This document shows, in pieces, positions 17,729 through 47,408 of a DNA stretch of 48,401 nucleotides; within the stretch, counting starts at the first letter, position 1, and the number at the start of each line of letters is the position of its first letter. The stretch comes from Rhodothermales bacterium (GTDB lineage: Bacteria > Bacteroidota > Rhodothermia > Rhodothermales > JABDKH01), in NCBI GenBank assembly GCA_028284545.1, contig JANQRN010000104.1:1-48401 (forward strand), read 5' to 3'. The notes beneath the pieces are model-generated. The model did no database searches and was not told the origin of the DNA. It worked only from the letters and a program-made list of their open reading frames with translations. The position numbers and the translations under genes were made by a program.

Positions 17729-19120
17729 ATGGCGCACGTATTCTCCGGTACCCTGGCCGGGATGGCTTTTGTTCTGGCGTTTGTCCTGAACAGCGGATTC
17801 CTTTTTCTGACTGCGGCCTTGCTCGCAGTCATGGCTGGCGTGACTCAACTCTTTTTCTGGCGAAAGCGGAGCGAATCGGTCCGCCCCACGTACTCGGCTA
17901 TCGAGCCGCGAGATGAGCTGTCTGATCTCGGAATCCTCGAAATTCGCCCCAAACAGAAGGTCAACCCGGTGCCTGGATCGGGTTCTGGCGTACTGACCGA
18001 AGCCCGGCCTAAGTCGAAGCCGGCGAGCAAAGCCGCTGACGAATCGGCGACGAAGACCAGCTCCGAGACAACGCGCGAAGCCCCGGCCGCACCAATGGAA
18101 GTTGCGCCCGCGACCAGCGAACCGACAACGCACGAGGCCCCCGGTTCTTCCGGCGACGGCGCGCTGGTCGCCGGTCCAGACGAAATACCCTTGACCATCA
18201 GAGCGGTCGACGATCAGGAGTATTCGGTTCGCTTTGCCAACCCGGTGTTGGATTCGCGAGTAATTCTTCCATGCCTCGAGGCGCTTGCCGCAGCGACTGG
18301 TTCGCAGACCGCGTGCATCATCGAGCGAATCGACAATTCGCTTCGGCATCGCGTCCTTGCCGTCGCCAGTCGGAGCGACTACGCCCGATCCGGCGGGAAG
18401 TACACCGCGATGGTTCCATACGTTGGCCGGAGCGCAAGACCGGGAAGCGTGAACGTGCGCAACTACGAAGTCGATCTAGACTCCAGCCTCCTGCGCTACT
18501 ACAGCGAGCATACATCGATCAAGAGCCTCGCCGCCGTGCCGCTTGCACGGAACGCTGTCAATGCCCATCTCTTGATTTGTGACTCGCGAAGGGTGGACGC
18601 GTTCTCGTCGAAGGACATAAAGGCGATAATAACGCAGTTCGCACGTACCATAGATCACGTATTGGCGCCTCCGGCAGGCGACGAAAACGAAGTCATGGCT
18701 GCCGGCGTGCAGGCGATCGCCGAGGAGATGGAGCGCGCCCGCACGGACAATGCTCCGCTGGCGCTGGCGCTCGTGCACTTGAACCAGAGTGGCGTCGATG
18801 GTCACGTGGCCTCCGGATACATGTCGGTTGAGAATCGTCTGCTTGAGCAGCTGCGCGACTCCGACGCAGCCATCCGGATCGAGCGTCTCAGCACTTACAC
18901 CTACGGGGTCTTCTACCCGGGTACGATCAACGAGGTCGAGGACTGGGCCGTCACGTTCGAGTCGCAGGTCGAGAGCGATCCTGTGATCGGTCACGCCGGC
19001 GTCTCGATTGGCGTGTGCATGCTTGCAGATAGACATGAAACGGCTGACGAGTTTCGCATTGACGCCATGGCTGCGCTCGAGGAGGCGTTTGAATGCGGAG
19101 CCTGCACCATTCTTGAGTAG
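17729..19120 (+). CDS. Membrane-anchored protein with a disordered linker, a GAF-like region and a degenerate GGDEF-like C-terminal domain
   Basis: Two N-terminal transmembrane helices are followed by a Ser/Thr/Pro/Ala/Glu-rich region of about 120 aa. The C-terminus has the layout of a GGDEF domain (LALALVHLNQSGVDGHVASGYMSVEN...DAAIRIERLSTYTYGVFYP...IGHAGVSIGVCM), but the catalytic GG[DE]EF motif is replaced by TYTYGVFY. This suggests a non-catalytic domain. Confidence 0.5.
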   Translation: MAHVFSGTLAGMAFVLAFVLNSGFLFLTAALLAVMAGVTQLFFWRKRSESVRPTYSAIEPRDELSDLGILEIRPKQKVNPVPGSGSGVLTEARPKSKPASKAADESATKTSSETTREAPAAPMEVAPATSEPTTHEAPGSSGDGALVAGPDEIPLTIRAVDDQEYSVRFANPVLDSRVILPCLEALAAATGSQTACIIERIDNSLRHRVLAVASRSDYARSGGKYTAMVPYVGRSARPGSVNVRNYEVDLDSSLLRYYSEHTSIKSLAAVPLARNAVNAHLLICDSRRVDAFSSKDIKAIITQFARTIDHVLAPPAGDENEVMAAGVQAIAEEMERARTDNAPLALALVHLNQSGVDGHVASGYMSVENRLLEQLRDSDAAIRIERLSTYTYGVFYPGTINEVEDWAVTFESQVESDPVIGHAGVSIGVCMLADRHETADEFRIDAMAALEEAFECGACTILE

Positions 19121-19126
19121 GCCTCG

Positions 19127-20305
19127 TTGGCACTCTTCGTGACGATTGTGCTGGACGGTGTTGGCGTCGGGTGGCAGCCCGACGCGCACATGTATGGCGA
19201 CGAAGGTGCAAACACGCTACAGCACGTCTGCGACACCGCCTCGCCCAAGCTCCCTGAACTGGCCGCACTCGGGCTGGGGTGTATTCTGCCGCTTGACGGT
19301 GTTCCGCCCGCTGCCACACCGCTGGCCTCCTTTGGTCGCATGACCGAAGTGTCGGCCGGAAAAGACTCGACAACCGGTCACTGGGAGCTTGCGGGATTGC
19401 GACTCGACGCTCCATTTCCCACGTACCCGGACGGGTTCCCTGACGAACTGATTTCACGTTTCGTCAACCGCACGGGAGTGCCCGCCGTGCTTGGCGGGCA
19501 TCCTGTTTCGGGGACTGCCGTCATCGAGCAGTTCGGCGAGGAGCACATCGCCACTGGCAAGCCAATCGTTTACACTTCCGCCGACTCAGTCCTCCAGGTG
19601 GCAACGCACGCCGACGTCTGCTCGCTAGCAGAGCTCTACCGCATTTGCGAGGTGGCTCGCAGTCAGGTATGCACGGGGCAGCACGCCGTTGGTCGCGTTA
19701 TCGCGCGCCCGTTTGCCGGCGAGCCAGGTGGTTTCGTGCGTCTCTCCGACAAGCGCCGCGATTTTGCGTTGCAGCCACCAGCCCCCGTACTTCAGCAGCG
19801 GTTGCAGAGTGCCGGTGTGCACACGATATCAATCGGTAAGATCGCGGACCTGTTTGCAGGTGCGGGTTTCGACGCAACGATCAAAACCAGTGGCAACTCG
19901 GAAGGGGTGATCGCGATCGTAGACGCAATCCGCGAATACAAGACGCGCGACCCGAAACGGGATACGTTTGTATGGGTCAACCTTGTCGACTTTGATCAGG
20001 ATTACGGCCACCGTAACGATCCTGACGGGTTTGCCCGCGCCCTGGAGCAGTTCGATGCGGCACTTCCTTCAATCCGAGCTGAACTTCCATCGGATTCGGC
20101 GCTGGTGATCACGGCTGACCACGGCAACGACCCGACGTTTCCGGGCACCGATCATACCCGTGAATACGTGCCGCTTCTTGTGTACGGGGTTGGGGCGTGT
20201 CGGGACGTTGGCACACGTCATTCCTTTGCCGATCATGCGAGGTCGGTGCTCGCCTACTTCAATGTAGACTCAGCTGAAATCGACGGAACGTCGTCGTTCT
20301 TGTAG
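19127..20305 (+). CDS. deoB: Phosphopentomutase
   Basis: The fold is the metalloenzyme (alkaline-phosphatase-like) type. Supporting sequences are VLDGVGVG, TTGHWELAGL and ADHGNDPTFPGTDHTREYVPLLVYG. Confidence 0.85.
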   Translation: MALFVTIVLDGVGVGWQPDAHMYGDEGANTLQHVCDTASPKLPELAALGLGCILPLDGVPPAATPLASFGRMTEVSAGKDSTTGHWELAGLRLDAPFPTYPDGFPDELISRFVNRTGVPAVLGGHPVSGTAVIEQFGEEHIATGKPIVYTSADSVLQVATHADVCSLAELYRICEVARSQVCTGQHAVGRVIARPFAGEPGGFVRLSDKRRDFALQPPAPVLQQRLQSAGVHTISIGKIADLFAGAGFDATIKTSGNSEGVIAIVDAIREYKTRDPKRDTFVWVNLVDFDQDYGHRNDPDGFARALEQFDAALPSIRAELPSDSALVITADHGNDPTFPGTDHTREYVPLLVYGVGACRDVGTRHSFADHARSVLAYFNVDSAEIDGTSSFL

Positions 20306-20309
20306 CGCG

Positions 20310-21440
20310 CTAGCGCAGTCTCGTGACCGTGCTCGTAATCGAACCGGTCTTGCCAGACAGCCGCACGAAGTATACTCCCACGGGAAGGTCGGCGGCCGGC
20401 AGTTCAAAGCGATACTGTTCTCCCGCGACGACGCTCCGTTCGCGGACCGCACCAACGGAGCGGCCCAACGCGTCGTAGAGCGCAACGGAGATGAAGTCGT
20501 TTTCCGGCGCAACGTAGTCGACGCTGACGGCGTCCACGAATGGATTTGGAAACGCGCGTAGATGGTCGTTAGCCTCGGCGACGGGGTCGTCCAGGCCAAC
20601 GGTCGACGGTCCTCCATCCTGGATTGTCAGCATTGCGCTCACGTCTTCCTGGACAACCTCGTATTCTTCGTGTGGGAGAAGTTCAAGTGAGACGGTTTCA
20701 ACCCCTTCGTAGCCGTTGTCGGGAACTGGCTCAACAACAACGAACGTTGCGGTATTGCCCGGTTCTATGGTCGCAAAGGAATCGATGTGGGCATAGTCGA
20801 CGCCATTCTCGGCGGAGCCTGTAACGGCAAAGAAGACAGTGAGCGCTTTCTCGAGTGAGCCCTCTCTGGTGATCCGGAACGCCCCGGTATTGTTGTCTCC
20901 ACGCTCGCTGGCATCCGCTTTCCCTCGCGAGGTCGCGACCTTGTTGCGCCCCGTCGGTGACGTTGCCTCGACGGTTGTACCGGAGAGGTTGTACAGCCCG
21001 TCATGTTGGTACGTACCGCCTCGGATGAACGGCGGGTTCTCGGCGTAGTTCAGGCCAATGGTTCCGTTGGATCCGCCAAACTCAATGTCCGTCGCTTGCT
21101 GCCAGAATCGCACTTCGATCTTCTCTCCCGCGTACAGACCATCCTTTTCGGGTGTGACCGGGTTGTCGCCCCAAAGTGTCAGCGCCACGTTCGCGCCGGT
21201 CCACGTCCGCGTTCCGACGCAGGTGCCGTCTTCTGAGAAGAAGGCGATCTCGTCACCGGCCTCGAACGGTGCGCCCATGAGTGTGTGCGTCCCGTTGTTG
21301 ACATCCACGATAATGGTAGCGGTACTACCAGTGTTGGAAACGCATCCGGCGAAATGGGGCTGGGCGTTTGAGGCAGGTGGCAGCCAGAGGGCGCAAGTCA
21401 GGAGCGCAGCTGCCGCGGAGCTTCGAGTGATCACGTGCAC
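20310..21440 (-). CDS. Secreted protein with Calx-beta-like repeats and a C-terminal type IX secretion system sorting domain
   Basis: An N-terminal signal peptide is present. The C-terminal 80 aa (PNPFVDAVSVDYVAPENDFISVALYDALGRSVGAVRERSVVAGEQYRFELPAADLPVGVYFVRLSGKTGSITSTVTRL) match the Por/T9SS C-terminal domain pattern. The gene converges on deoB. Confidence 0.75.
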   Translation of the reverse strand: MHVITRSSAAAALLTCALWLPPASNAQPHFAGCVSNTGSTATIIVDVNNGTHTLMGAPFEAGDEIAFFSEDGTCVGTRTWTGANVALTLWGDNPVTPEKDGLYAGEKIEVRFWQQATDIEFGGSNGTIGLNYAENPPFIRGGTYQHDGLYNLSGTTVEATSPTGRNKVATSRGKADASERGDNNTGAFRITREGSLEKALTVFFAVTGSAENGVDYAHIDSFATIEPGNTATFVVVEPVPDNGYEGVETVSLELLPHEEYEVVQEDVSAMLTIQDGGPSTVGLDDPVAEANDHLRAFPNPFVDAVSVDYVAPENDFISVALYDALGRSVGAVRERSVVAGEQYRFELPAADLPVGVYFVRLSGKTGSITSTVTRLR

Positions 21441-21594
21441 CGGGGTGGGAGGTCATGCAAGACGGGTCTTATTGGGTATCGACGTGGTGCCCGCGCGCTT
21501 TAGCTCATTTTGGCGCACTTGAATATCTCGGAACGTCGTAATATCTACACGGCAGAAGGCGGAACGAACTGGAGAACGGCGGGAGGCTCAGCGC

Positions 21595-21864
21595 ATGCTA
21601 CTTGGAAAGGTCGTCGGTACCGTGTGGGCAACCCGCAAGGATGAGAGCATGGTTGGAATGAAGCTCCAGATTGTCCGCGAGGTTGATGTCCACCACGCCG
21701 AGAAGGACCGGTTTGTCATCGCGGTCGACAGCGTCGGGGCGGGCGTCGGCGAGATTGTCCTTGTGGCGCAGGGTTCGAGCGCTCGTCAGACCCAGCTTAC
21801 CCGCGACAAGCCGGTCGACGCGGTGATATCGGCGATCGTGGACAAACTCGACGTGTCGGGATGA
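21595..21864 (+). CDS. EutN/CcmL/PduN-family protein (bacterial microcompartment vertex pentamer, BMC-P), copy 1
   Basis: The 89-aa protein (MLLGKVVGTVWATRKDESMVGMKLQIVREVD...AVDSVGAGVGEIVLVAQGSSARQ...PVDAVISAIVDKLD) matches the EutN/PduN consensus along its full length. It shares the typical N-terminal G.V.ST.K, the VDxxGAG block and the SGSSAR block. A GGAGG RBS lies upstream. Confidence 0.75.
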   Translation: MLLGKVVGTVWATRKDESMVGMKLQIVREVDVHHAEKDRFVIAVDSVGAGVGEIVLVAQGSSARQTQLTRDKPVDAVISAIVDKLDVSG

Positions 21865-22124
21865 ATCTCGCACGTGCGATCGGACGGGTTTGGGCCACGG
21901 TCAAGGACGAGCGTCTTGCGGGCCGCCGGATTCTGTTGATTCAACCAATGCGTTCTTCGGGCGAGCACGTCGGTTCACCAATCGCTGCTCTCGACGCAAG
22001 TGACGCCGGTCCGGGGGACATCGTGTTCTACGTCACGGCATCTGAGGCCGCGATCCCGTACAAACCTGGAATGACGCCCACAGACGCGACTGTAGTTGGC
22101 ATCGTGGAGCAGATCGACAAATAG
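21861..22124 (+). CDS. EutN/CcmL/PduN-family protein (BMC-P), copy 2
   Basis: The 87-aa protein (MNLARAIGRVWATVKDERLAGRRILLIQ...ALDASDAGPGDIVFYVTASEAA...TDATVVGIVEQIDK) has the same fold signature as copy 1. Its start overlaps the stop of copy 1 by 4 bp (ATGA), which suggests a two-gene operon. Confidence 0.75.
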   Translation: MNLARAIGRVWATVKDERLAGRRILLIQPMRSSGEHVGSPIAALDASDAGPGDIVFYVTASEAAIPYKPGMTPTDATVVGIVEQIDK

Positions 22125-22134
22125 CTGCCGGCGG

Positions 22135-22815
22135 CTATCGGTCTGCGATCAGCGGCACGAACCGAAACTCATCCAGTGCCTCGGTCTTGTAGTCGTCCGG
22201 CCCGACTCGCTCGATCCGGTTCATGACCTGGCCGGAGGCCCCGCCTACCGGAATGACAAGTACGCCGCCGCGAACGGGTGCCCGGTCGTCTTCGGTCTTC
22301 CGCGGCTGTACGAGTTGCGCTCGCAGAGCGTCGGGCACTCCTATAGCTCCCGCCGTGACGACAATGGCGTCGTAAGGCGCAAACGCGGGCCAGCCTTCCG
22401 TACCGTCCCCGCATCGCGTTCGCAGCCGGTAGCCCAGTTTCCGAAGGAGGGCGTTAGTCCGGCGGTACAGCGGTTCCAGGCGTTCGACGGAGTACAATTC
22501 GACGCCGAGCTCGCACAGCACCGCAGCCTGATACCCGCTGCCCGTCCCTACCTCTAGCACCTTGGCGCCGGGGTTAAGACCCTCCATCGCCGTCTGCGTC
22601 TGGTAGGCGACAGTGAAGGGCTGAGATATGGTCTGGTCGAGGCCGATGGGTAGCGCTTCGTCCCGGTATGCGCGCCCGACGAGCGCCTCGTCCACAAACA
22701 GGTGACGCTGAACCCGACCGATGGCGACAAGAACCCGTTCGTCTTGGATGCCCTTTTCACGAAGCAGCGCAACCAGCCGCTCCCGTCGACGCGCGTACTT
22801 CCAGTCGTTTTGCAT
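22135..22815 (-). CDS. pcm: Protein-L-isoaspartate O-methyltransferase
   Basis: The SAM-binding motif reads VLEVGTGSGYQAAVL. The family block LDQTISQPFTVAYQT is present. The 226-aa length fits. Confidence 0.85.
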   Translation of the reverse strand: MQNDWKYARRRERLVALLREKGIQDERVLVAIGRVQRHLFVDEALVGRAYRDEALPIGLDQTISQPFTVAYQTQTAMEGLNPGAKVLEVGTGSGYQAAVLCELGVELYSVERLEPLYRRTNALLRKLGYRLRTRCGDGTEGWPAFAPYDAIVVTAGAIGVPDALRAQLVQPRKTEDDRAPVRGGVLVIPVGGASGQVMNRIERVGPDDYKTEALDEFRFVPLIADR

Positions 22816-22817
22816 GC

Positions 22818-23615
22818 TCAGTTGGCTGCTGCAAGCTCGCGCGTGCGCGCGGTATCGTGGGCGATGGCCTCGGTGAGGTATTCACGAAGGCGGTCGGGTG
22901 CGATGTCGACAATCATCTCACCGTTGAGCGCCACCGACACCTTTCCCGTCTCTTCGGAAACGACGACCACGAGCGCGTCTGTTGTCTCGGATAGGCCAAT
23001 TGCACTACGGTGGCGGAGGCCAAGGTGCGGACTGAGTTTCATGCTGGTCGACACCGGCAAGATACACCGCGCCGCGTCAATTCTGTTGTTCCGAACGATC
23101 ACCGCGCCGTCATGCAGCGGACTCTTTTCGTAGAAGATCGTTTCCAGCAATTCCGTAGTGAGCCTCGCCTCAATCGGCGATCCGGTTTCAACATAGCTTC
23201 TCAGGCCGGTGGTCCGCTCAATGGCAATCAGCGCGCCCGTTCGGGACTGTCGCATTGACGAAATCGCATTCATGACCTCGTCGACAAGGGGCTCGGCAGC
23301 CTTGGAGGTGAAGAAGCGCCGTATGAGGGGATTCTGACCGATAACGAGCAGCAGGCGTCGAATTTCCGGTTGGAATAGGATTATGACGGCGAGTACGAAG
23401 ACATCGCTGATGACCCGGAAAAGCGATCCCAGGAGCGTCATGTCGAGGATCGTGACGACAAACTGCAGACCGAGTAGAACGAAGATCCCGGCGAAGATCT
23501 GGATGGCGATCGTGCCGCGCATCAACTGGTACAGCTTGTACAGGATCAGCGCAAAGATTCCGATCTCAAAAAGATCGATCAGGCGTATCGGTATGACCCA
23601 GTTGAATAGCGTCAC
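22818..23615 (-). CDS. cdaA: Diadenylate cyclase CdaA (DacA), membrane-anchored
   Basis: Three N-terminal transmembrane helices are followed by a DAC domain carrying DGAVIV and GLRHRSAIGLSE(T)TDA motifs. The gene overlaps pcm and folP by 4 bp each. Confidence 0.85.
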   Translation of the reverse strand: MTLFNWVIPIRLIDLFEIGIFALILYKLYQLMRGTIAIQIFAGIFVLLGLQFVVTILDMTLLGSLFRVISDVFVLAVIILFQPEIRRLLLVIGQNPLIRRFFTSKAAEPLVDEVMNAISSMRQSRTGALIAIERTTGLRSYVETGSPIEARLTTELLETIFYEKSPLHDGAVIVRNNRIDAARCILPVSTSMKLSPHLGLRHRSAIGLSETTDALVVVVSEETGKVSVALNGEMIVDIAPDRLREYLTEAIAHDTARTRELAAAN

Positions 23616-24478
23616 TGTTGCTCTTCGGCGTATTCAGGTCGCATCGTGATGGCCATCGTGCGCAACATCTCAGCAGTCGGGGCAACGTCGTGCGTGCGCA
23701 CGATAGCAGCGCCGCGAATTGCCGCAACAGCCGTGGCTCCGAGTGAGCCAAAGAGTCGCTGGAAGCTCGGAGCCGGAAACTGTTCGCTGCCCAGGGAGAC
23801 TCCGATAGCACTTTTTCGCGAGACGCCAATCATGATGGGGTTCGTACCCACGCGGTGACCCTCAAGTTCATTTATCAGTCGGAAGTTGTCAGCCGTTGTC
23901 TTCCCGAAACCAAATCCGGGATCCGTCACCACGCAACCGACGCCGGCCGCCTCGGCAACCTCAACTGCTTTCTCGAGGTCCGCTCGGACCGACTCAAGTA
24001 CGTCGGCGTATTCCGCCACGTGTGGCATCTGCCCCGGGCTACCGGTTGAGTGCATTAGAATAAGGGCTGCCTCGTAACGTGCCACAACGTCGGCTGTCTC
24101 GCGGTGCAGCCGAAGCGCAGTGATGTCATTAATGATGTGTGCACCCGCGTCCAGGCACGCGGCGGCCACAGACGGATGATACGTATCAATGGATAGGGTA
24201 GCCTCTGGAAGTTCAGCGGTCAGCGCCTTCACGACCGGCAGTACGCGCGCGAGCTCCAGCTCCGGGGGCACGACATCAGCACCCGACCCATAGGCCACAC
24301 CCCTGGGCCTCGACGAGGCGCCGCCTATGTCGATGATCGCCGCCCCGGCGTCGATCATCAGCCCCGCCTTCATCACGGCCCGGTCCAGGGTGGTGTACTG
24401 GCCACCGTCGAAGAATGAATCCGGGGTTACGTTCAGAATACCGGCGATGATGGGCGCGCCCTCGTTCACCACGAGCAC
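23612..24478 (-). CDS. folP: Dihydropteroate synthase
   Basis: The pterin-binding signature is GILNVTPDSFFDGG, with a downstream DIGGASSRPG. The listed ORF extends to 24634, which would overlap the divergent GH3 gene start. The start was therefore refined to an in-frame GTG at 24478 (VLVVNEGAPIIAGILN...). Confidence 0.8.
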   Translation of the reverse strand: MLVVNEGAPIIAGILNVTPDSFFDGGQYTTLDRAVMKAGLMIDAGAAIIDIGGASSRPRGVAYGSGADVVPPELELARVLPVVKALTAELPEATLSIDTYHPSVAAACLDAGAHIINDITALRLHRETADVVARYEAALILMHSTGSPGQMPHVAEYADVLESVRADLEKAVEVAEAAGVGCVVTDPGFGFGKTTADNFRLINELEGHRVGTNPIMIGVSRKSAIGVSLGSEQFPAPSFQRLFGSLGATAVAAIRGAAIVRTHDVAPTAEMLRTMAITMRPEYAEEQQ

Positions 24479-24610
24479 CCGCCCGCGGCACCGGATTTCC
24501 CACTGGCGACTTGGATTCACTGAGCAGTACGCGCGAGAGCAGTTGACATGACAGGGAGCGTGACCGAAACTTGACCCCGATTTACACCGGTTCGACGGTT
24601 CGCATCCTGC

Positions 24611-26143
24611 ATGATTGACAAGCTTCTGCGCCACGCCCCCGGCAGTCCGGTTGCCCGAATTTATCGCTTTCTCCGGAACCCTGTCGAAACGCAGGAACGC
24701 GTGCTTCGACAGCTGCTGGTCAAGGCGTCCGGTACAGAGTGGGGGAGGCGTCTTTCCTTCCAGGCGCTGTCGGAAGAACCTGACGTGTTTGATGCGTATC
24801 GAAACGCCGTTCCGCTACACTCCTACGAGGACCTGCGGCCGGACATCGACCGGGTCCGTCAGCGCGAGCCAGACGTGATGTGGCCCGGCACCGTCTCAGA
24901 CTTTGCGGTGTCGAGTGGCACTGCCTCGTCAGGCAAGATCATTCCGGTGAGTCGAGACACGCTGATGGCGAACAAGCGATTCAGCATGGGCATCATGTAC
25001 AACTACGTCGCCCGAACCGGCAACCTCAAGTTTCTCGGCGGCAAGTTCCTTTCTCTGCCGGGCCGGATCGACGAGGACCCGGCGCATCCGGGCACCTACA
25101 TCGGCGAAGTCAGCGGGCTGCAAGCGCGGTACGCTCCGGCATTCGTACAGAAGTATGCGCAGGCCGTGACGAACGAGACGTTGTTCATACCGAACTGGGA
25201 AGAGAAGCTCGACGCTATTGTTCGGCAGACCGTCTCCATGGACGTGCGCACCGCCGCCATGGTGCCAACGTGGGCCCTTGTTTTGTTTGAGCAGTTGCTG
25301 GATCGGTATTCGCATTCGACCGGGCGTCGCGCAGAAACGGTTCGCGACATCTGGCCAAACTTTCGCGTGTTCTTTTCTGGAGGGGTTGCGCTTGCCTCGT
25401 ACCGGGAATTGTTGGAGGAGCAACTTGGCCGGGGAGAGGTGGACTTCCTGGAAGCCTACGGTGCGTCAGAGGGGTTCTTTGCCTTCCAGCTTGATCGCAC
25501 ACATACCGATATGGTGCTGCACCTGGACAACAGTATCTACTATGAGTTCTTGCCCGTTGACGCCGGGACCACCGATTCGCGGAAGACGCTTGCGGAAGTA
25601 GAGGTCGGAGTCCGATACCAGATGTTTGTGAGTACGGCTTCTGGGTTGTGGGCCTACGGGGTCGGTGACGTTGTCAGGTTCACATCGGTCCGCCCGTATC
25701 GTATCGAAGTTGCGGGGCGGACTGGTGAGATGATTGACAAGTATGGGGAAGCGGTGTTTGGCGACGAGGCGCGTGCTGCGCTCAAAGAGGCCTGCGAGAT
25801 CGCGGGTAGGACCATAATCGACTATCACATCGCCCCGCTTCCTCCTGCCCGGGACCGGTTGCCGAGTCACGAATGGTTCGTCGAATTTGAGACACCCCCC
25901 GAAAATTTGGATTCATTCGCTGAGCTCCTGGACAATTATCTGCAGCGAGTAAACAGGCACTACAAGATTCGCCGGGAGGCACGCGCTTTTGACGTGCCAC
26001 GGGTCGTGAGTGTGCCTAGGGGCACATTTTACAGGTGGATGGCACAGAGTCGGGCCTCGGTGAGTGCCCAGTCAAAGGTGCCCCGAATGAGCGAGGAGCG
26101 AAAAATGGCAAACAAGTTGCGGGAGCTAATTGGTACCGGATAG
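24611..26143 (+). CDS. GH3-family adenylate-forming (acyl-amido synthetase-like) protein
   Basis: The GH3 motif 1 reads SSGTASSGKIIPVS. Further blocks include YGASEGFFAFQ and the layout has a C-terminal sub-domain. The 510-aa length matches bacterial GH3 homologs. Confidence 0.75.
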   Translation: MIDKLLRHAPGSPVARIYRFLRNPVETQERVLRQLLVKASGTEWGRRLSFQALSEEPDVFDAYRNAVPLHSYEDLRPDIDRVRQREPDVMWPGTVSDFAVSSGTASSGKIIPVSRDTLMANKRFSMGIMYNYVARTGNLKFLGGKFLSLPGRIDEDPAHPGTYIGEVSGLQARYAPAFVQKYAQAVTNETLFIPNWEEKLDAIVRQTVSMDVRTAAMVPTWALVLFEQLLDRYSHSTGRRAETVRDIWPNFRVFFSGGVALASYRELLEEQLGRGEVDFLEAYGASEGFFAFQLDRTHTDMVLHLDNSIYYEFLPVDAGTTDSRKTLAEVEVGVRYQMFVSTASGLWAYGVGDVVRFTSVRPYRIEVAGRTGEMIDKYGEAVFGDEARAALKEACEIAGRTIIDYHIAPLPPARDRLPSHEWFVEFETPPENLDSFAELLDNYLQRVNRHYKIRREARAFDVPRVVSVPRGTFYRWMAQSRASVSAQSKVPRMSEERKMANKLRELIGTG

Positions 26144-26320: not shown

Positions 26321-27160
26321 ATGTACGTCCCACGCCAGCAGCGAATGCTGGATCAGTATCTGCAAGAGATCGGCCAGATCCCGCTCCTTACTCCCGCAGA
26401 GGAAGTCGACCTTGCGCAGCGCATCAAGCAGAACGATATGGAGGCGCTGCACCGCCTGACCCGAGCGAACCTTCGCTTCGTCGTATCTGTAGCCAAGAAA
26501 TACCAGGGCCAGGGCCTGACTCTCGCTGACCTGATCAATGAGGGTAACTACGGCCTGATCAAAGCGGCCCAGCGTTTCGACGAAACGCGGGGTTTCAAAT
26601 TCATCTCCTACGCGGTGTGGTGGATTCGGCAGGCCATCCTTCAAGCGTTGGCCGAGCAGAGTCGCGTCGTGCGCCTGCCGCTGAACCGAATCGGCACCAT
26701 CTCGAAGATCCGAAAGACGAGTGCGAAACTCGCGCAGGTTCACGAGCGGCAGCCGAACATCGAAGAGCTCGCAAAAGAGCTTGAGGTTGACGTAGAGAAG
26801 GTTCGTGAGGCGCTTCAGCACACGGGTCGACATCTCTCCATGGATGCGCCGTTCAACGAGGACGACGACAACAGCCTCCTCGATGTGCTTCCAAATGATG
26901 AGGACCTGTCTCCCGACGACACGTTGATGGACGAGTCGCTCAAGATTGACATAGAGCGCGCCCTCAGCCTTTTGCATCCGCGCGAGGCAGAGATTACGCG
27001 ACTCTACTTTGGGATCGGTCGCGAGCACCCGCTGACGCTCGAAGAAATCGGGCAGCGGTTTGGGCTGACGCGAGAACGCGTGCGCCAGATAAAGGAAAAG
27101 GCGCTGCGGAAGTTGCGTCAGAAGCACCGACGGGAAGAGCTGCAGATGCACATAGGCTGA
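26321..27160 (+). CDS. rpoD: Primary RNA polymerase sigma factor of the short Bacteroidota-type SigA (sigma-70 family)
   Basis: Region 1.2 reads [19 protein letters not shown]. Region 2 reads [37 protein letters not shown]...[13 protein letters not shown]. Region 4 reads [29 protein letters not shown]. The 279-aa length is typical of the Bacteroidota/Rhodothermota SigA. Confidence 0.9.
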
Positions 27161-27319: not shown

Positions 27320-27940
27320 ATGGAACCCAACCTCGCAATTGGTCACGTGCTCAGTCGTGCGTGGGAAGCGTTCAAAACGAGGCCCGGCCTTATTCTCGCA
27401 GCCGCGCTCATCGCGGCAATCCTCGGTTCGCCGAGCGTCATCGTTGACGATGATTCAGGTCTGAGCTGGGCGGCCGAGTTGCTCCAGTTCTTCCTCGGGC
27501 CGCCGCTGGCAGCCGGCATGTGCATGCTGCTGCTGAATGTCGTGCGCGGAAATGAACCAGACATCGGCAACATCTTCGACGGGTTCAGACGCTACGGAAA
27601 ATCGATGGGCGTCTACTACATGTACGCCATCATCGTGGTCCTGGGCTTCGTCGCTCTCATCATCCCGGGGATCATTGCCCTTGTTGGCCTCCTCCCGGCC
27701 GTCTACATGGTGCTCGACAAGGACTACGACGCTGTTGATACGATCAAGAAGGCGTGGGAAATGACCAACGGTCACAAGGGAGATCTCTTCGTTCTTGGCA
27801 TCATCCTCGTGCTGATAACGCTCGCCGGCCTATTCGCCTTCATTATCGGAGTGTTCTTCACCTACACGTTTACGCTCGTGGCGCAGGCCGTGGTCTACGA
27901 TGAGTTGTTGAAGGCAGAAGAACCTGACGTATTCGTCTAG
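27320..27940 (+). CDS. Integral membrane protein of unknown function
   Basis: The 206-aa protein has four to five predicted transmembrane segments. Its organisation is loosely reminiscent of the DUF975 / GDPD-membrane-domain families. The assignment is by hydropathy only. Confidence 0.45.
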   Translation: MEPNLAIGHVLSRAWEAFKTRPGLILAAALIAAILGSPSVIVDDDSGLSWAAELLQFFLGPPLAAGMCMLLLNVVRGNEPDIGNIFDGFRRYGKSMGVYYMYAIIVVLGFVALIIPGIIALVGLLPAVYMVLDKDYDAVDTIKKAWEMTNGHKGDLFVLGIILVLITLAGLFAFIIGVFFTYTFTLVAQAVVYDELLKAEEPDVFV

Positions 27941-30900
27941 TAGACGATGTGACGTTGCTCAAGGGCGCGACGGACAGCAAAGAGTAGAAGTGGGTGGATC
28001 CGATAGCGCGTGTCTGTGTCAATTCGGGCGAACTCACTCTGGCGGACTTGGTCTGTTTCGTCGCGCACCGGTGCGATCATGCGTCGATTCAACAGCGCTT
28101 CGAGTAAGAGGACGTTCTCGTCAGCATTCAGTCTGGCTATCCGGGCATGCTCGTCTGCCGTGAGCGTCTTATGAAACAGGAAGTGCTCAAGCGAGAAAGC
28201 CCATGCCAGCGGTTGTCGCGAAATCGCGTCGAATGACAGTGGGTTGACGGGCGAGACGACAACGGTGCTCGATTCGTCCTCGAACTGGCAAGCACTGACC
28301 CAGTAGTACAGCGCCAGCATGATGTTCTGTCCACTAACTCTCGCCAGTCGCTCGAAGAACACGTCCTGATAGTGGGCCTGCTGCTCTTCTGCTGACCGGC
28401 GGCGGCGCACCCACTGGCGCATCGCGTCCGTTTGCGTTTGCGGCGGTAGGAACCGCAGCTGCATGCCACTACGCCGATGTCGCGCAAGTACTACCTGCTT
28501 CAGCGAGGCGCCCGAAAACCGCTTGAGCGAGCGGTGATTGAGAAAACCCGACGCCGTTCCAGAGACACTTGATTGGATATAGCGCCAGGTCAGGTCGTTG
28601 GTCGCGGCCACCCAGAACATGGCCGTGTCAGTTCGTGAGAAGAAGAGCAGGACGCGCTCTATGAGCGTCGTCCCTTCCGCACAGCGAATGACCAGGTGCT
28701 CCAGGTTGTCGATCAGACAAACGCGCCCCCTCAACTCGGGTGTTTCCACGATCGCTGACTCCAGCGCCGAGAGCGAGTCGTACTCGTCAACGCTCAGGTT
28801 CAGTGCGGCAGCCAGATGTCGAGCGAAGGCGGGCTCGGACTCCAGCCTTTCGTCGAGGTCCAGTTTGAAAAAATGCGATGGGCCAAGCTCAGGAAACGCC
28901 TCCTGCGCGGCGATCGTCAGGAAGCTGGTCCGGCCGCTGCCCTGTGGCGCTGATACGATGACAGCTCCAGCGCGACCGGTTGTGATCCAGTGACGGTACT
29001 GTGCCGACATCCAGTCCAAGTCGTCGCGCCGCCCTTCGTGCAACGTAGGCTCGGAGAGGGGTTCAAACGAGAACAGGTGTCGGTAGATAAGTGGGAGGCT
29101 CTTCCGCACCTGCGCAACGTCAGACAAGGCGTCTATCGCGGCGGTCAGATCCTGTTCGGTCCCGTGCGGACCGCCAACCGCCGATTGTCCCAGACGAACC
29201 AGCTTGCGTGCTTTGAGAAGAGTCCTTCTGCCGAAGTTCCGGAGTCGCGTCACACCTGACTGTACACTGGCAGCCACGGAGCGGCGGTAAGACTCAGCCT
29301 GGCGCTGAAGACCCGCGATTCGATCTTCCCACTGCTCCTGGCCATCGTCGTCGGTTCGCAATCGGCGAAGCACCGCGATCCACTGTGACTGAACCTCCTC
29401 GACTGTGGCCGAGGCGAACTGCCCCCAAGGCGGTCCGAGCGTACTTCGGATGTCGCTGAGCAACTCCACGGCTCGCGTCAGGCCGACGTCAGAGAGCTCT
29501 CTGGCGCGACTCGCGGCACGAACACTGTCTTCGACCCCGCCCGCGGCGGACGCGTCGTCTGCGCCCTCGCTCTCATCGCCGTCCCGGATCACGCCCACCT
29601 CGTTGACCGCGGCGTCCAGGTTGAACAACACGACGTTCTGAACCTCCTCTATCCGCGTCCACGAGGTGCGAAGCTGGGAGCGAAGCGGGGCCGCACCAGG
29701 CTCCAGTCGACGACCCAGCGGGCCAAGCGATCGTTTGACAACATCTCGAAAAGCAACGCTTTTCGTGCGCGCAAGAGGATCCACTGTGCTCGCAGTCGGG
29801 TCAGGGAGCGCATGGATCGTCAACGTTTCAGGAAGCGTATCGAGGCTGCGTAGGAACGCGGTCCAGATCCCGCTTCCAGGCTGGACAAGAGCCTCGTCTG
29901 CGGCCACAAGTCCGGGCATCTCTCGAAGCATCCGGGTGAAGTGGCGACCCGCTCGGAGCCGAGTCATTCGCAGGTCCCGGTAGAGCGTGTCAATGTCTCC
30001 GCCACCCTCGGCGGCCTCGCAAGCGTTGTTGGTCTCGGACGCAAAGCGTGCAAGTTCAGCTTCGATTTCGTCCGTAGTCGTCAGTATCGGGTCAACAGAC
30101 TTGCGCGCCACCGTGCCGAGTATGGACTCCTCGGTCTCCAGCAGTCGCCGACGCATTGCGAGCATCTGGTTGCCAAGCTCGAGGCGATCTGTGACCTGCG
30201 CGAACCACTTCTCCCACATCTCCCGAGTTCGACGTGCTCGGTCAGCGGGCGCATAACCCTCGACGCTGCTTCCGGATTTTCCTCTAATGCGTCCTCCTCG
30301 GGACTGCGCATCAGCCAGGTCGGTGCGTAGCCTACGATCGGCAAGCTCCACGAGAGATGCTTCCACCTCAGGGATCGAAATGTCGGCGGCTGTCAGCTGA
30401 TCGAGCGAGGCGTGCAACTTTTCCGCGGTGTCTCGAGCTCCGGCAATGGCCTTTTCGGCCGACGTCTGTTCACCGTCGTCCTCGGGCGAATCGGGGTCGC
30501 CATCATCGTTCGCGCGTGCCAAGTTTCTTACTTCGGTGTAGTCGCGCACCGCCACGGTGTCGATCCCTCGTTCAGCTACGAGCATGGACCGGACCCAGCT
30601 GCTGATCGATCTTTCGATTTCGACACCGACTTGCGCGTAGTGCGACTGAAGCGACTCGTAGACCGGCGTGTACAGGAGCGGTAGTCGGGCACCGATGTGG
30701 TATCCGATCAGACTTCGTAAGGGGATGCCCCCGACTTTTTCGTTGGTTTCGTCTTGTCCGCGCAGTCGGGTGAAGAGGCTGCGCGCCCAACCCCCGAAAC
30801 CGCCACGCTTATTGCCCGGATAAGAGTCAGGATTGTCGGGCAACGGAATCCACTCCGGCAGTGCTTCCTGGATCAGAACTCCGTCTTGCAGAAACCGGGC

Positions 30901-31236
30901 GTGCGCCTCTCCGAGCAACGACGGCGGCGGTTGCTGACGGAAGTGCTCCAGCAGTGGTTTTAACACGTTGTCGTGGACAGCGCGGCGGTAATCGACGATC
31001 GCTTGCCAAACAGACTCCTCGTCCGCTTCGGCGGCCCGTAAGTCCGAGAGGGCGCTGACGTGTGCACCGGTTGCCTCTTCCAGCAGGTTGTGTAGCGGAG
31101 TCTGAACGTCGTCATTGATCGACTCCTTCCATTCGGCAACAGCGGCATCCAGTAGATCGCTCGCCTGCTTCAGGTACCTGTCGAGATCTGAAGGCGCTGG
31201 AGCCGTCTCTGAAAGAGTGGCTGACGGCTCATTCAT
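27937..31236 (-). CDS. Large (1099-aa) acidic coiled-coil protein with a C-terminal P-loop NTPase-like domain that bears a deviant Walker A
   Basis: The first roughly 700 aa are alpha-helical and acidic with no obvious catalytic motif. The C-terminal region carries a Walker A-like AVIVSAPQGSGRTSF in which Arg sits at the canonical Lys position. A Walker B-like hhhhD motif (RVCLIDNLEHLV) follows. There is no transmembrane segment. The start codon overlaps the stop of the upstream MscS-family gene by 8 nt (ATGAATGA). Confidence 0.6.
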   Translation of the reverse strand: MNEPSATLSETAPAPSDLDRYLKQASDLLDAAVAEWKESINDDVQTPLHNLLEEATGAHVSALSDLRAAEADEESVWQAIVDYRRAVHDNVLKPLLEHFRQQPPPSLLGEAHARFLQDGVLIQEALPEWIPLPDNPDSYPGNKRGGFGGWARSLFTRLRGQDETNEKVGGIPLRSLIGYHIGARLPLLYTPVYESLQSHYAQVGVEIERSISSWVRSMLVAERGIDTVAVRDYTEVRNLARANDDGDPDSPEDDGEQTSAEKAIAGARDTAEKLHASLDQLTAADISIPEVEASLVELADRRLRTDLADAQSRGGRIRGKSGSSVEGYAPADRARRTREMWEKWFAQVTDRLELGNQMLAMRRRLLETEESILGTVARKSVDPILTTTDEIEAELARFASETNNACEAAEGGGDIDTLYRDLRMTRLRAGRHFTRMLREMPGLVAADEALVQPGSGIWTAFLRSLDTLPETLTIHALPDPTASTVDPLARTKSVAFRDVVKRSLGPLGRRLEPGAAPLRSQLRTSWTRIEEVQNVVLFNLDAAVNEVGVIRDGDESEGADDASAAGGVEDSVRAASRARELSDVGLTRAVELLSDIRSTLGPPWGQFASATVEEVQSQWIAVLRRLRTDDDGQEQWEDRIAGLQRQAESYRRSVAASVQSGVTRLRNFGRRTLLKARKLVRLGQSAVGGPHGTEQDLTAAIDALSDVAQVRKSLPLIYRHLFSFEPLSEPTLHEGRRDDLDWMSAQYRHWITTGRAGAVIVSAPQGSGRTSFLTIAAQEAFPELGPSHFFKLDLDERLESEPAFARHLAAALNLSVDEYDSLSALESAIVETPELRGRVCLIDNLEHLVIRCAEGTTLIERVLLFFSRTDTAMFWVAATNDLTWRYIQSSVSGTASGFLNHRSLKRFSGASLKQVVLARHRRSGMQLRFLPPQTQTDAMRQWVRRRRSAEEQQAHYQDVFFERLARVSGQNIMLALYYWVSACQFEDESSTVVVSPVNPLSFDAISRQPLAWAFSLEHFLFHKTLTADEHARIARLNADENVLLLEALLNRRMIAPVRDETDQVRQSEFARIDTDTRYRIHPLLLFAVRRALEQRHIVY

Positions 31237-38743: not shown

Positions 38744-39277
38744 ATGTTGAAAGCCGAAACGATACCCACCACAGCCGAGCAGCCCATCCAAGAACGGATC
38801 GCGGGGCAGGAACGTCCGCACATTGAGGAGTTTGTGACCGAGGCGGGCCGCTATCTGAGTGAGGACACGATCGTTCTCACGTCCGTCCGGGATGCCGATT
38901 ACGGTATTGTGGATGTCGTTTTCGTTGGCCCTGAGGCGACCATCGGTTTCGCGTTCGGCGGGTCTTCCCGTGCGCGGGTGCCCTACTTCCTGGACGCGCT
39001 CTACGAAGTTGCGGCCCTTGACGTGGCTCACGGGCTCGGTGACATTCTGTACGTTGCGGCCCGCCATCACGGCGCGCTTTTCCAGGACGACGCGCGTCTC
39101 CGGCTGGTGCCGTTCTGCTCATCGAGAATCCTGGCCAATGGCCGGCGGCGCGGCTCGACGACCGTGGGTCGCGGTGACGACGGCGAGCCGATTGTTGTGC
39201 GGCGACGCACTGCGGTCGTCGCGGAGCCGTCTTTCGCGCCCTTCAGACGACCTTCTGGAGTGGGTACCGCAGCCTAA
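38744..39277 (+). CDS. Hypothetical cytoplasmic protein
   Basis: The 177-aa protein has no signal peptide. Its composition is protein-like and it contains a Gly-rich motif FAFGGSSRA. The C-terminal third is Arg-rich and may be a read-through artifact. No family was recognised. Confidence 0.35.
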   Translation: MLKAETIPTTAEQPIQERIAGQERPHIEEFVTEAGRYLSEDTIVLTSVRDADYGIVDVVFVGPEATIGFAFGGSSRARVPYFLDALYEVAALDVAHGLGDILYVAARHHGALFQDDARLRLVPFCSSRILANGRRRGSTTVGRGDDGEPIVVRRRTAVVAEPSFAPFRRPSGVGTAA

Positions 39278-39289
39278 AGTCCGGTGCGT

Positions 39290-39316
39290 GTTCGACTTAA
39301 GTTCATTTAAGCGAAC
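39290..39316 (+). promoter_or_regulatory. Composite inverted/direct repeat (GTTCG-ac-TTAAG-ttcat-TTAAG-CGAAC) in an AT-rich patch upstream of the pilin-like gene. It is a candidate operator.
   Basis: GTTCG (39290-39294) and CGAAC (39312-39316) form an inverted repeat that encloses two TTAAG copies (39297-39301 and 39307-39311). The element lies about 100 bp upstream of the ATG at 39414, in a locally AT-rich region of a 65% GC genome. Confidence 0.3.
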
Positions 39317-39413
39317 CGCGGTTCTTCCGATTACCGGAGAGATCCCATCAGCTATGGTCAGTCGGCCGTGGCTGTACCGTACATGGTATAGAAGGTATTC
39401 CAGGAGGAATAGA

Positions 39414-39890
39414 ATGAAACTCACGAAAGTGATTGCGGCATTGGTATTTCTGGGCGTGACGGCCACGGCCAGCAATGCGCAGACAACTGATGCGCACGAC
39501 GTAACGATCGTTGTGCCCACAGTCAACATGATCGCGGTCAGCGGCGACCTGACCCTCACGCTTGGACAGCCGGCAGCGCCGGGTGGTGATCCGGCCCCTG
39601 CGACCAGCACGGGCGCTCAGTATCTGGTCACGACGAACGAGACTGGCAAGAAGATCACCGCGGCTCTGAGCAGCAACTACTCCACGGGCATCACGCTCGC
39701 GGTAGAGCTCATCGCTGTTGGGTCAGCCACCTCTGCAGGTCAGGTCACGCTCTCAGCAACGGCAGTAGACGTCGTTACTGGAATCGGCCTCGTCTCGGGA
39801 AGCGCGGCGATCAACTACACGGCTTCTGCGACTTCAGCAGTTGCGCCGGGTTCGGAGACGCGTACGGTAACGTACACGCTGACGAGCTAG
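39414..39890 (+). CDS. Small secreted Thr/Ser/Ala/Val-rich beta-strand protein, DUF4402/SCPU-like. It is a putative major subunit of an archaic chaperone-usher-type fimbria.
   Basis: A perfect AGGAGG RBS sits 6 nt upstream. The signal peptide is MKLTKVIAALVFLGVTATASNA|QTT. The mature protein is about 135 aa, with alternating-polarity beta-strand composition and a C-terminal alternating motif TVTYTLTS that resembles the final strand of SCPU/Csu-type pilins. A hairpin terminator follows. The long ORF listed from 38859 is an upstream in-frame extension. Confidence 0.55.
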   Translation: MKLTKVIAALVFLGVTATASNAQTTDAHDVTIVVPTVNMIAVSGDLTLTLGQPAAPGGDPAPATSTGAQYLVTTNETGKKITAALSSNYSTGITLAVELIAVGSATSAGQVTLSATAVDVVTGIGLVSGSAAINYTASATSAVAPGSETRTVTYTLTS

Positions 39891-40048: not shown

Positions 40049-40561
40049 GTGTTTTCCCGCCTCGCCAAGACTGCAAACGAATTGTCTCCTGCGCTGATGT
40101 GCAGGCTGGCGGCGTTTGCTCTTTTTGTTTTTGCGAGTTCTGTTTCCGCGCTCGAGGCCACGGCGCAGCTCCTCTTCGTTTCGGGTCCGCCCACCGAGCT
40201 TACAATTGCGCCGCCGTCGTTCGCCGGACTTGATCCGCTTCCCGACGAAGACTCCGCTACGCGAATCGTCTGGCTCTTTTCGCCGCGCCGCCCGTCAAAA
40301 ATTGTCGTCAACACCGTGGCTCCGGGCCAGTCATTTCGGTTGTTCACTGAGGCACGGAACGTTTTCCGGGCGACAGGAATGCCGGAGGTACAGCTGTTTG
40401 ACGGCGGTCCCGGGTTGGATTTCATCCGCGACATTCCCCGCCGGTCTTTTATCGGCGCGGCATCCATCTACTTCCGAGCAGAGGCCCCGGCCCAACTCGG
40501 TAATTCACAACTGTACGGTGACGACAATCACACCGTCTACTTTACCTGGACTGCACAATGA
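40049..40561 (+). CDS. Secreted protein, a putative minor fimbrial subunit (alternative start at 40097)
   Basis: The internal Met at 40097 gives a canonical signal peptide (MCRLAAFALFVFASSVSALEA). The C-terminus HTVYFTWTAQ has the same alternating aromatic/Thr pattern as the upstream subunit. The stop overlaps the next gene's start by 4 bp. Confidence 0.5.
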   Translation: MFSRLAKTANELSPALMCRLAAFALFVFASSVSALEATAQLLFVSGPPTELTIAPPSFAGLDPLPDEDSATRIVWLFSPRRPSKIVVNTVAPGQSFRLFTEARNVFRATGMPEVQLFDGGPGLDFIRDIPRRSFIGAASIYFRAEAPAQLGNSQLYGDDNHTVYFTWTAQ

Positions 40562-44891: not shown

Positions 44892-45344
44892 TTGAGCGTC
44901 CTCAGCATTCGAGCGCGTGCTCGTGCCTGTAGGTTCGCGCGAATAGCTCTCCAGTTTGCGCTTCCGGGATTGATAACTGCCGGGAGCGTCTGTGGGCAGT
45001 CGCGCGATGCCGTGCGGCATGTGGCCGATGCGCGGCACAGCATCACGATTGATGTACCCCAATATGCCCGCTTCGGGAGTGCACGCATCCAGGTCGGATC
45101 AGCGCGCAACCTGAACGGACGTGTTTGGCTCCATACAAACGCAACGTCCTTGCTGGCAACGCAGTCACGCTTTCGGTACGGGCCCTCATCGCAGCTCTTG
45201 CGTGCGCAGCCTATACATGCTGCCCTCGAGTTCGACCCGTCGGAGAGCGCCCCCGACAGTTCGCTGCAGCGCTTCGACGTCGAGCATGTTGACGAAGACG
45301 GCGTGCTTGTATCGTGGGTTTATGTAACCGTTACCGACAGATAG
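44892..45344 (+). CDS. Hypothetical protein with an uncertain start, possibly another fimbrial-subunit-like protein
   Basis: The ORF has a TTG start and is preceded by a roughly 100-bp AT-rich region. The C-terminus VSWVYVTVTDR again shows an alternating beta pattern. There are no strong family features, and the gene converges on the flotillin gene. Confidence 0.3.
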   Translation: MSVLSIRARARACRFARIALQFALPGLITAGSVCGQSRDAVRHVADARHSITIDVPQYARFGSARIQVGSARNLNGRVWLHTNATSLLATQSRFRYGPSSQLLRAQPIHAALEFDPSESAPDSSLQRFDVEHVDEDGVLVSWVYVTVTDR

Positions 45345-47249: not shown

Positions 47250-47408
47250 TTGGCTCAAATGGCGAAAGATTGCAATTATCCTTGTACGGCGCGACGGGCA
47301 GGATGTGCCAGCGATTAGGCAAAATCGCATGACGTTCGAAGTATGACAATCAGTTGTCACAGGTCGCTGGTAGACTGGTGACAGATCCGAAACAAACCCC
47401 AAAGCGTC

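Follow-up and report, generated by a model that had tools for sequence, protein, structure and literature searches.

A tandem pair of vertex protein genes in a Rhodothermales bacterium as a probable part of a dispersed FRAG1-type microcompartment shell

The two genes considered here lie in a 48,401-nucleotide contig of a Rhodothermales bacterium (GenBank assembly GCA_028284545.1, contig JANQRN010000104.1, forward strand), which was analyzed over its whole length and is referred to below as the window. A preliminary description, made from the letters of the window, had reported an orphan tandem of overlapping bacterial microcompartment (BMC) vertex protein genes of the BMC-P type, encoding 87-89 amino acids, at positions 21595-22124, and these coordinates were found to be exact. 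The first gene, designated A, was located at positions 21595-21864 of the plus strand and encoded an 89-amino acid paralog resembling the 'standard', green-clade vertex pentamer subunits. The second gene, B, was located at positions 21861-22124 of the same strand and encoded an 87-amino acid paralog of a divergent, 'special' pentamer subunit kind. The stop codon of A and the start codon of B overlapped within ATGA.

Judged by their profile matches, both proteins are full-length members of the BMC-P pentamer family, as had been claimed. In the search with the Pfam model PF03319 (EutN_CcmL, 83 positions, gathering cut-off of 25 bits), for which the preliminary description had called, A scored 102 bits (E-value 2.2e-29) over model positions 1-83 and B scored 78 bits (E-value 1e-21) over positions 1-82. 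The mutual identity of A and B was 30%. Neither protein reached the cut-off of any NCBIfam equivalog model, namely those for CcmL (NF053795), EutN (NF011992) and CsoS4A/B (TIGR02703 and TIGR02704). The best scores were recorded with the CcmL model (82 bits for A and 45.6 bits for B at a cut-off of 125 bits), and the other models scored lower. Hence, A and B were regarded as BMC-P proteins that belong to the vertex proteins of neither the carboxysome nor the Eut system.

It had also been stated that the 48 kb contained no BMC-H shell protein, no BMC-T protein and no aldehyde dehydrogenase or other signature enzyme, and the Pfam, tblastn and hidden Markov model (HMM) scans were all empty in agreement with this. 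The Pfam sweep of the 36 large open reading frames (ORFs) of the window returned no PF00936, PF00171, PF06130, PF01791 or PF02502, and no BMC-H gene was found in the window by tblastn probes and two HMMs. The window was thus without BMC-H/T, aldehyde dehydrogenase, PduL, DeoC-type aldolase and RpiB.

The distribution of the tandem was investigated by scanning one genome per GTDB species, and relatives of A were found in at least 274 species-level genomes. The best 80 of these, each with 10 kb flanks, were combined with five loci from exact-protein look-ups, resulting in 83 non-redundant loci in total, the window included. They belonged to Rhodothermales, Ignavibacteria/Melioribacteraceae, Kryptonia, Chloroherpetonaceae, Calditrichota, LCP-89 and unclassified Bacteroidota. 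The A-type gene was directly followed by a B-type gene in all 83 loci, and each locus held exactly two BMC-P genes, with no third BMC-P gene within about 10 kb. The two genes overlapped or were separated by no more than 20 nucleotides in 69 loci. No BMC-H gene was detected by the HMM in the 1.4 Mb flanking the 83 pairs, when the same HMM detected BMC-H/BMC-T in control loci.

The orthologs were identical to the window proteins by 64-88% for A and by 39-62% for B. Between Rhodothermales and Ignavibacteria the median identity was 70% for A, 63% for the sigma factor encoded downstream of the pair, 49% for DeoB encoded upstream, and 47% for B. The best 120 database relatives of A shared 74-86% identity with it, and the named ones were mostly metagenome-assembled genomes (MAGs) of Rhodothermales. 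A stand-alone tandem that is so uniform and conserved was considered to be an ancient and selected arrangement and no accident of this genome.

Two other origins of the ORFs were considered and rejected. Chance ORFs or a mis-call were ruled out by the Pfam E-values and the 83 orthologs. A horizontal transfer was ruled out by the guanine and cytosine (GC) content of the pair, which equaled that of the window (0.606 vs 0.594), and by the vertical synteny.

The closest solved relative of A was the shell pentamer of Haliangium ochraceum (PDB 5V74), which matched residues 1-89 without gaps at an E-value of 1e-22, and this ungapped alignment to a solved shell pentamer was taken to settle the fold. 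In the same PDB search A also matched 6OWF and CcmL (2QW7). The best match of B was 5V74 as well (E-value 4e-9), and EutN (2HD3) and 4I7A were its further matches. In the alignment with 5V74, A carried Thr13, the loop G48-A-G-V-G-E53 and the motif I81-V-D83, which were conserved by at least 80-95% over the 83 orthologs. At the same places B carried Thr13, D48-A-G-P-G-D53 and I81-V-E83, so that the acidic residues were retained. In addition to the loop, Ser13 and the IVD motif reportedly contact the hexamer (Sutter et al. 2017).

This loop reads GAGxGE, or GCxPGD in CsoS4A; its acidic residue is salt-bridged to the arginine in the (A/P)RPH motif of the hexamer, and one of its glycines is hydrogen-bonded to the lysine of the hexamer KAA motif (reviewed in PMC13370225). 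The hexamer-docking residues were thus kept in both paralogs, which argues that both still act on a hexamer lattice. A and B are predicted to assemble as pentamers and cap a shell.

A further residue distinguished the pair. Trp11, within V-W-A-T-x-K-D, was invariant in A and B of all 83 ortholog pairs (window positions 21625-21627 and 21891-21893), whereas residue 11 was Val or Ile in the solved pentamers compared, i.e., those of H. ochraceum, CcmL and EutN. Trp11 adjoins the putative hexamer-contact residue 13. It may represent a signature of the vertex-facet contact in this clade.

The surroundings of the pair were compared by clustering all ORFs of the loci and annotating representatives, and a conserved genomic block was found. 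In Ignavibacteria the gene order was secY, map, infA, rpsM, rpsK, rpsD, rpoA, rplQ, engB, a GAF-GAF-GGDEF gene, deoB, sometimes a PIN-domain gene, A, B, a gene of an RpoD-family sigma-70 factor (approximately 290 amino acids), an NlpC/P60 gene and a gene of a fumarase/aspartase-type lyase. In 57 of the 83 loci, deoB preceded A on the same strand at a distance of at most 2.5 kb, including 31 of 34 loci in Ignavibacteria, 9 of 17 in Rhodothermales, the two Calditrichota loci and LCP-89. An RpoD-like sigma gene was found downstream of the pair in 69 loci and followed B immediately on the same strand in 54. It adjoined B directly in Ignavibacteria, Kryptonia and Chlorobi and was placed 3.6-8.4 kb downstream in Rhodothermales, where, as in the window, B was separated from the sigma gene by the inserted pcm-cdaA-folP genes and a GH3-family gene. 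In the window and in its closest relative (locus L006), the gene of a cargo protein of the type IX secretion system (T9SS) was additionally located between deoB and A. The block composed of the GGDEF-like gene, deoB, A, B and the rpoD-like gene appears to be a possibly new clue.

Some local features of the block were also recorded. The PIN-domain ORF of about 130 amino acids between deoB and A was observed at L053:9607-9996 and in 22 other Ignavibacteria loci. The operon of ribosomal proteins, rpoA and rplQ, together with engB, was located just upstream in L053:189-13526 and in most Ignavibacteria loci (L020, L030, L075). Such a housekeeping address next to the ribosomal operon and the RpoD-like gene is unusual for microcompartment shell genes. 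In L003 (Rhodocaloribacter litoris) the pair was relocated between the GGDEF-like gene and the phosphoenolpyruvate carboxylase gene, and deoB was not adjacent. A PF04199 'putative cyclase' gene was located about 4 kb upstream of the pair of this organism (L003:5091-5879), and PF04199 is listed in the table of BMC-associated families of the published catalog (Sutter et al. 2021, PMC8217296).

No gene of DeoC, RpiB or aldehyde dehydrogenase adjoined the pair in any of the 83 loci, and the E. coli DeoC probe gave no match in any locus. Enzymes of the sugar phosphate-utilizing (SPU) kind were considered for Calditrichota and LCP-89, and the candidate was rejected because the flanks of the pair were housekeeping genes and not DeoC. 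At L047:10514-15906 (Calditrichota) deoB was located directly upstream, and the pair was followed by rdgB (Ham1 family), an IscS-like aminotransferase gene, mnmA, panB and panC. The DeoC/LacD aldolase reported for this lineage must therefore adjoin another BMC-P gene.

In the window itself, the neighbors named earlier, a T9SS cargo protein and folP-cdaA-pcm, agreed with the Pfam domains. The preliminary description had overlooked deoB and the GGDEF-like gene upstream and the RpoD-like sigma-70 gene downstream. The ORF in the position of the GGDEF-like gene (17729-19120, plus strand) encoded a membrane-anchored protein of 463 amino acids with an N-terminal hydrophobic segment and a low-complexity linker, which matched neither Pfam nor NCBIfam models. 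Its identity with the products of the equivalently placed genes of 10 other Rhodothermales-type loci was 27-34% (E-values down to 6e-47). The GAF-GAF-GGDEF protein, which occupies this slot in Ignavibacteria, Kryptonia and Chlorobi, is its positional counterpart. The 463-amino acid protein may be a degenerate cyclic-di-GMP signaling protein.

The next gene, deoB (19127-20305, plus strand), encoded a phosphopentomutase according to the NCBIfam equivalogs NF003766 (467 bits, cut-off 256) and TIGR01696. The window DeoB had no terminal extension relative to the model, thus no encapsulation peptide was evident. Between deoB and the pair, a T9SS-sorted protein with Por_Secre_tail and Calx-beta domains was encoded on the minus strand (20310-21440). 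Its family (fam48) was present in only 4 loci, the closest relative included, and absent from this place in most loci, and the insertion of the gene is specific to the lineage.

Since the gene upstream of A lies on the opposite strand, A and B cannot be co-transcribed with deoB in this window, and the divergent intergenic region (21441-21594) would hold a promoter of their own. The sigma-70 consensus scan of the region upstream of A, which does not cover Bacteroidota-type promoters, gave no match. The region showed no DNA conservation with the upstream regions of other Rhodothermales. The Rfam search returned no families at gathering score across the whole 48 kb, and no leader RNA was found upstream of A.

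Downstream of the pair, the pcm-cdaA-folP block was located on the minus strand (22135-24634; Pfam PCMT, CdaA_N with DAC, and Pterin_bind). It was followed by the plus-strand gene of a GH3-family protein (24611-26143), the best model of which was OlsH, a lyso-ornithine lipid synthetase (308 bits, below the cut-off of 620). In Rhodothermales its place between the folP and sigma genes was conserved. The RpoD-family sigma-70 factor (26321-27160, plus strand) was 279 amino acids long and contained the Sigma70 regions 1.2, 2, 3 and 4. Its best NCBIfam matches were RpoD models, at scores below their cut-offs, and its identity within Rhodothermales was 77-99% with a median of 95%. The protein probably serves this lineage as its primary sigma factor. 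No Pfam match was obtained for the large ORFs 27937-31236 (minus), 38859-39890 (plus), 40049-41409 (plus), 44892-45344 (plus) and 46635-47432 (minus), one of which encoded 1099 amino acids.

A stand-alone pair of vertex genes has a counterpart in the literature. The statement that BMC-P proteins are normally found only inside BMC loci was too strong, because both satellite loci and wholly fragmented loci have been published. In the catalog of Sutter et al. (2021, PMC8217296), the fragmented (FRAG) types hold their shell genes at up to six genomic places, mostly far from enzyme genes. FRAG1 is a 'shell protein only' type of 57 loci, most prominent in Ignavibacteria and found also in Kryptonia, Bacteroidetes, Chlorobi and Rhodothermaeota. 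Its shell is composed of a BMC-P triplet (green, gray and orange) and two BMC-H proteins, one with a large C-terminal domain, and a PduS/PduT pair occurs in 24 of the 57. The gray and orange BMC-P proteins always co-occur as triplet members, accompanied by a third one of the green, blue or purple clade. FRAG1 has its counterpart in the FRAG3 type of Calditrichaeota and LCP-89, and DeoC/LacD aldolases adjoin other shell genes in FRAG3 and FRAG5. The taxa of the A-B pair largely overlapped the published FRAG1/FRAG3 range, with Calditrichota and LCP-89 falling to the FRAG3 of the catalog.

The trees of the same catalog (PMC8217296) provided more specific links. A 99-amino acid BMC-P protein of Rubricoccus SG-29 (Rhodothermaeota) is labeled 'FRAG1 (sat)' within the green sub-clade viridian3, which also holds FRAG1 satellites of Ignavibacteria and Bacteroidetes, and the clade model for A-type pentamers is named 'P_viridian3_mixed-spu'. 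In the BMC-T tree, the assemblies of L060 (Ignavibacteria CG1_02_37_35) and L062 (Ignavibacteriales CG_4_9_14_3_um_filter_34_10) are typed as FRAG1, and so is Melioribacter roseus, the species of L075.

Whole-genome counts were available from Axen et al. (2014, PMC4207490). In their Table S2, Chloroherpeton thalassium ATCC 35110 is listed with 2 BMC-H and 3 BMC-P genes distributed over three satellite-like loci, and M. roseus with 5 BMC-H, 1 BMC-T and 7 BMC-P genes in five loci. As the complete genomes of relatives hold BMC-H genes, lineages with the pair encode hexamers at other sites, and BMC-H genes would be expected elsewhere in the present genome. For Ignavibacterium album JCM 16511, 2 BMC-H and 0 BMC-P genes are listed (Table S2 of the same work), which indicates that FRAG1 parts can be lost or occur separately, although related Ignavibacteria carry A and B.

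We proposed that the A-B pair is part of a FRAG1-type microcompartment with scattered shell genes, and the probability of this reading was estimated at roughly three in four. Since FRAG1 shell genes are scattered, a stand-alone pair is expected and is not anomalous. Of the two explanations offered in the preliminary description, a satellite locus and a non-BMC use of the pentamer fold, the former was supported, indirectly, by the orthologous tandem in FRAG lineages and by the BMC-H genes elsewhere in relatives, and the latter found no positive support while the docking residues were kept. It had also been suggested that a complete BMC locus elsewhere in the genome, lacking its own BMC-P, would make the pair an ordinary satellite. 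That test misfits the FRAG organization, because FRAG types have no complete main locus and all of their shell gene sets are satellites (Sutter et al. 2021).

According to the proposed model, A would act as the standard vertex cap, five copies of which form a truncated pyramid closing the twelve vertices of a shell of BMC-H hexamers. The acidic and glycine residues of its GAGxGE loop, together with IVD, would dock it onto two motifs of the hexamer, KAA with its Lys and (A/P)RPH with its Arg. B would be one of the two 'special' pentamers, of the gray or orange clade, which accompany a standard one in BMC-P triplets. The triplet rule of gray, orange and a third member fits a standard A, a divergent B and one more BMC-P elsewhere. 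Other sites of the genome are accordingly predicted to hold a third BMC-P gene and two BMC-H genes, of which one would encode a long C-terminal domain, and perhaps also a PduS/PduT pair. At the present site A and B would form a bicistronic unit under their own promoter, derived from an ancestral layout of a co-oriented GGDEF-like gene, deoB, A, B and the rpoD-like gene amid housekeeping genes.

The housekeeping context suggests a steady rather than a substrate-induced expression, and the pair is likely to be expressed constitutively. Steady expression has also been suggested for the satellite-like loci of single-cell genomes of Poribacteria and BRC1 (Axen et al. 2014, PMC4207490). The nature of the cargo was approached through the constant deoB neighbor, the 'mixed-spu' name of the clade and the DeoC/LacD aldolases of FRAG3 and FRAG5. 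These led to the conjecture that the cargo pathway handles (deoxy)ribose phosphates from DeoB and the resulting acetaldehyde, as in SPU-type BMCs. This assignment is tentative, and the odds were judged to be somewhat against it.

Several observations weigh against the FRAG1 assignment. No BMC-H, BMC-T or third BMC-P gene was present in the 48 kb of this genome that were examined. A BMC-H protein search, seeded with a Haliangium-type sequence, yielded at least 120 matches, and the 120 listed were all Haliangium-like and 82-97% identical. No listed match was tied to genomes bearing the pair, and the abundant P0138 belonged to an unrelated H. ochraceum-like locus of 66% GC. The placement of A in viridian3 is indirect, as it was made by taxon, length and shared assemblies and not by alignment to catalog entries. 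With regard to I. album, a pair without hexamers is conceivable. The BMC-H HMM missed a divergent BMC-Tdp in a positive-control locus, thus very divergent BMC domains nearby could escape it. Finally, the link to deoB could be inherited synteny without functional meaning, and DeoC, RpiB and aldehyde dehydrogenase genes were adjacent in none of the loci.

Other explanations of the tandem were weighed against these data. The pair might be a true orphan in a genome, and perhaps in many Rhodothermales, devoid of BMC-H genes, where A and B would have a shell-independent function, for example as a small OB-fold-like oligomer binding another partner. The lack of BMC-H genes in the window and in about 10 kb around the 83 orthologous pairs would be accounted for by such a function, as would the surroundings of a ribosomal protein operon, engB, deoB and the rpoD-like gene. 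The very strong conservation of A, which exceeds that of the sigma factor and DeoB between Rhodothermales and Ignavibacteria (medians of 70% vs 63% and 49%), the Trp11 invariant in both paralogs and absent from the solved BMC-P structures compared, and the uncoupling of FRAG1 parts in I. album (Axen et al. 2014, PMC4207490) point in the same direction. Yet the hexamer-contact motifs were conserved in both A and B, and BMC-H genes are present in every related genome with a whole-genome count, namely those of C. thalassium and M. roseus. L060, L062 and Rubricoccus would be further such genomes, going by their FRAG1 labels in the trees of Sutter et al., and a shell-independent function of a BMC-P protein is undocumented. 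This explanation was therefore held to be unlikely.

A still smaller likelihood was assigned to an ordinary satellite of a conventional main locus elsewhere, i.e., an enzyme-bearing metabolosome locus of the H. ochraceum, SPU or Planctomycetes and Verrucomicrobia microcompartment (PVM) kind. M. roseus does combine FRAG1 parts with a conventional locus (PVM-like in Axen et al. 2014; MIC4 in Sutter et al. 2021), the type I BMC of H. ochraceum keeps two BMC-P genes in a satellite locus, and its pentamer is the best solved relative of A. However, the only Rhodothermaeota entry found in the catalog is FRAG1, C. thalassium has satellite-like loci only (2 BMC-H and 3 BMC-P), and both the tandem and its context were conserved in 83 loci independently of any main locus. 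The possibility that the pair is a decaying, non-functional remnant of a lost BMC can hardly be credited. No partner genes surround it and an inserted T9SS gene separates it from deoB, but both ORFs are intact and of full length. Moreover, A (64-88%) and B (39-62%) are conserved in at least 83 species-level genomes with their order and tight spacing preserved, and the conservation of sequence, order and spacing indicates purifying selection.

Once the pair is placed within FRAG1, vertex proteins that seem to lack a shell are no longer an anomaly. Dispersed shell loci are an already published class, to which the pair adds another case, and the function of the class is still unexplained. FRAG microcompartments have been cataloged, but no enzymes, encapsulation peptides or inducing substrate have been identified for them. 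The conserved neighbors point to a steady expression and perhaps to a role in the metabolism of pentose phosphates or nucleosides. Among cultured organisms, the carriers are Rhodocaloribacter litoris, Stygiobacter electus, M. roseus and C. thalassium. When genomes related to Bacteroidota are annotated, an isolated EutN/CcmL pair is to be read as part of a dispersed shell set and not as an ethanolamine or carboxysome gene.

A bolder extension was also considered. The pair could be a core, steadily expressed component of the Fibrobacterota-Chlorobiota-Bacteroidota (FCB) group, fixed between deoB and the primary sigma gene, immediately behind the ribosomal protein operon, before these FCB lineages diverged. 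It could serve a constitutive organelle that processes (deoxy)ribose phosphates arising in nucleoside salvage or, in lineages such as some Rhodothermales, act hexamer-free. The chances of this being so were considered to be low. If true, a constitutive organelle or a hexamer-free use would depart from the textbook view of microcompartments as substrate-induced, operon-encoded catabolic modules.

The pair was finally compared with known systems. The SPU signature enzymes DeoC and RpiB use (deoxy)ribose 5-phosphate, which is the product of DeoB, and deoB is the most constant non-regulatory neighbor of the pair, which likens the locus to SPU BMCs, with a functional link that is conjectural. The locus differs from the SPU, FRAG3 and FRAG5 types in that PF01791, PF02502 and aldehyde dehydrogenase are absent from the window and from the vicinity of the pair in all loci. 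The CsoS4A/CsoS4B proteins of alpha-carboxysomes are likewise adjacent BMC-P paralogs that always occur together, and the GCxPGD docking variant of CsoS4A resembles the DAGPGD loop of B. The CsoS4 genes, in contrast, are part of the cso operon, which also encodes the hexamers, Rubisco and carbonic anhydrase, and A and B scored only 35.5 and 21.8 bits, respectively, against the CsoS4 equivalog cut-off of 120.

The similarity to H. ochraceum was closer. Its pentamer (PDB 5V74, 6MZX, 6MZY) aligned without gaps with A over 89 residues, with GAGVGE and IVD identical, and its BMC-P triplet is split between a main locus and a two-gene satellite. In H. ochraceum, however, the standard pentamer is encoded in the main locus beside BMC-H, when A itself is located in the satellite. 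The satellite pair of H. ochraceum adjoins an aldolase gene, and none is near A and B; residue 11 is Val in H. ochraceum and Trp in A and B. C. thalassium, a member of another class (Chlorobia), has a complete genome in which shell genes occur solely in three small loci, and its family Chloroherpetonaceae carries the same A-B tandem, as seen in the Chloroherpetonaceae MAG of locus L038. In L038 the immediate neighbors of the pair are the GAF-GGDEF gene on one side and the sigma gene on the other, without deoB and without pcm-cdaA-folP. As for FRAG1 itself (Sutter et al. 2021, PMC8217296), the deoB-A-B-rpoD-like block and its position downstream of the ribosomal operon are not reported in the catalog, but the pair shares with this type both the dispersed shell genes remote from enzymes and the range of taxa.

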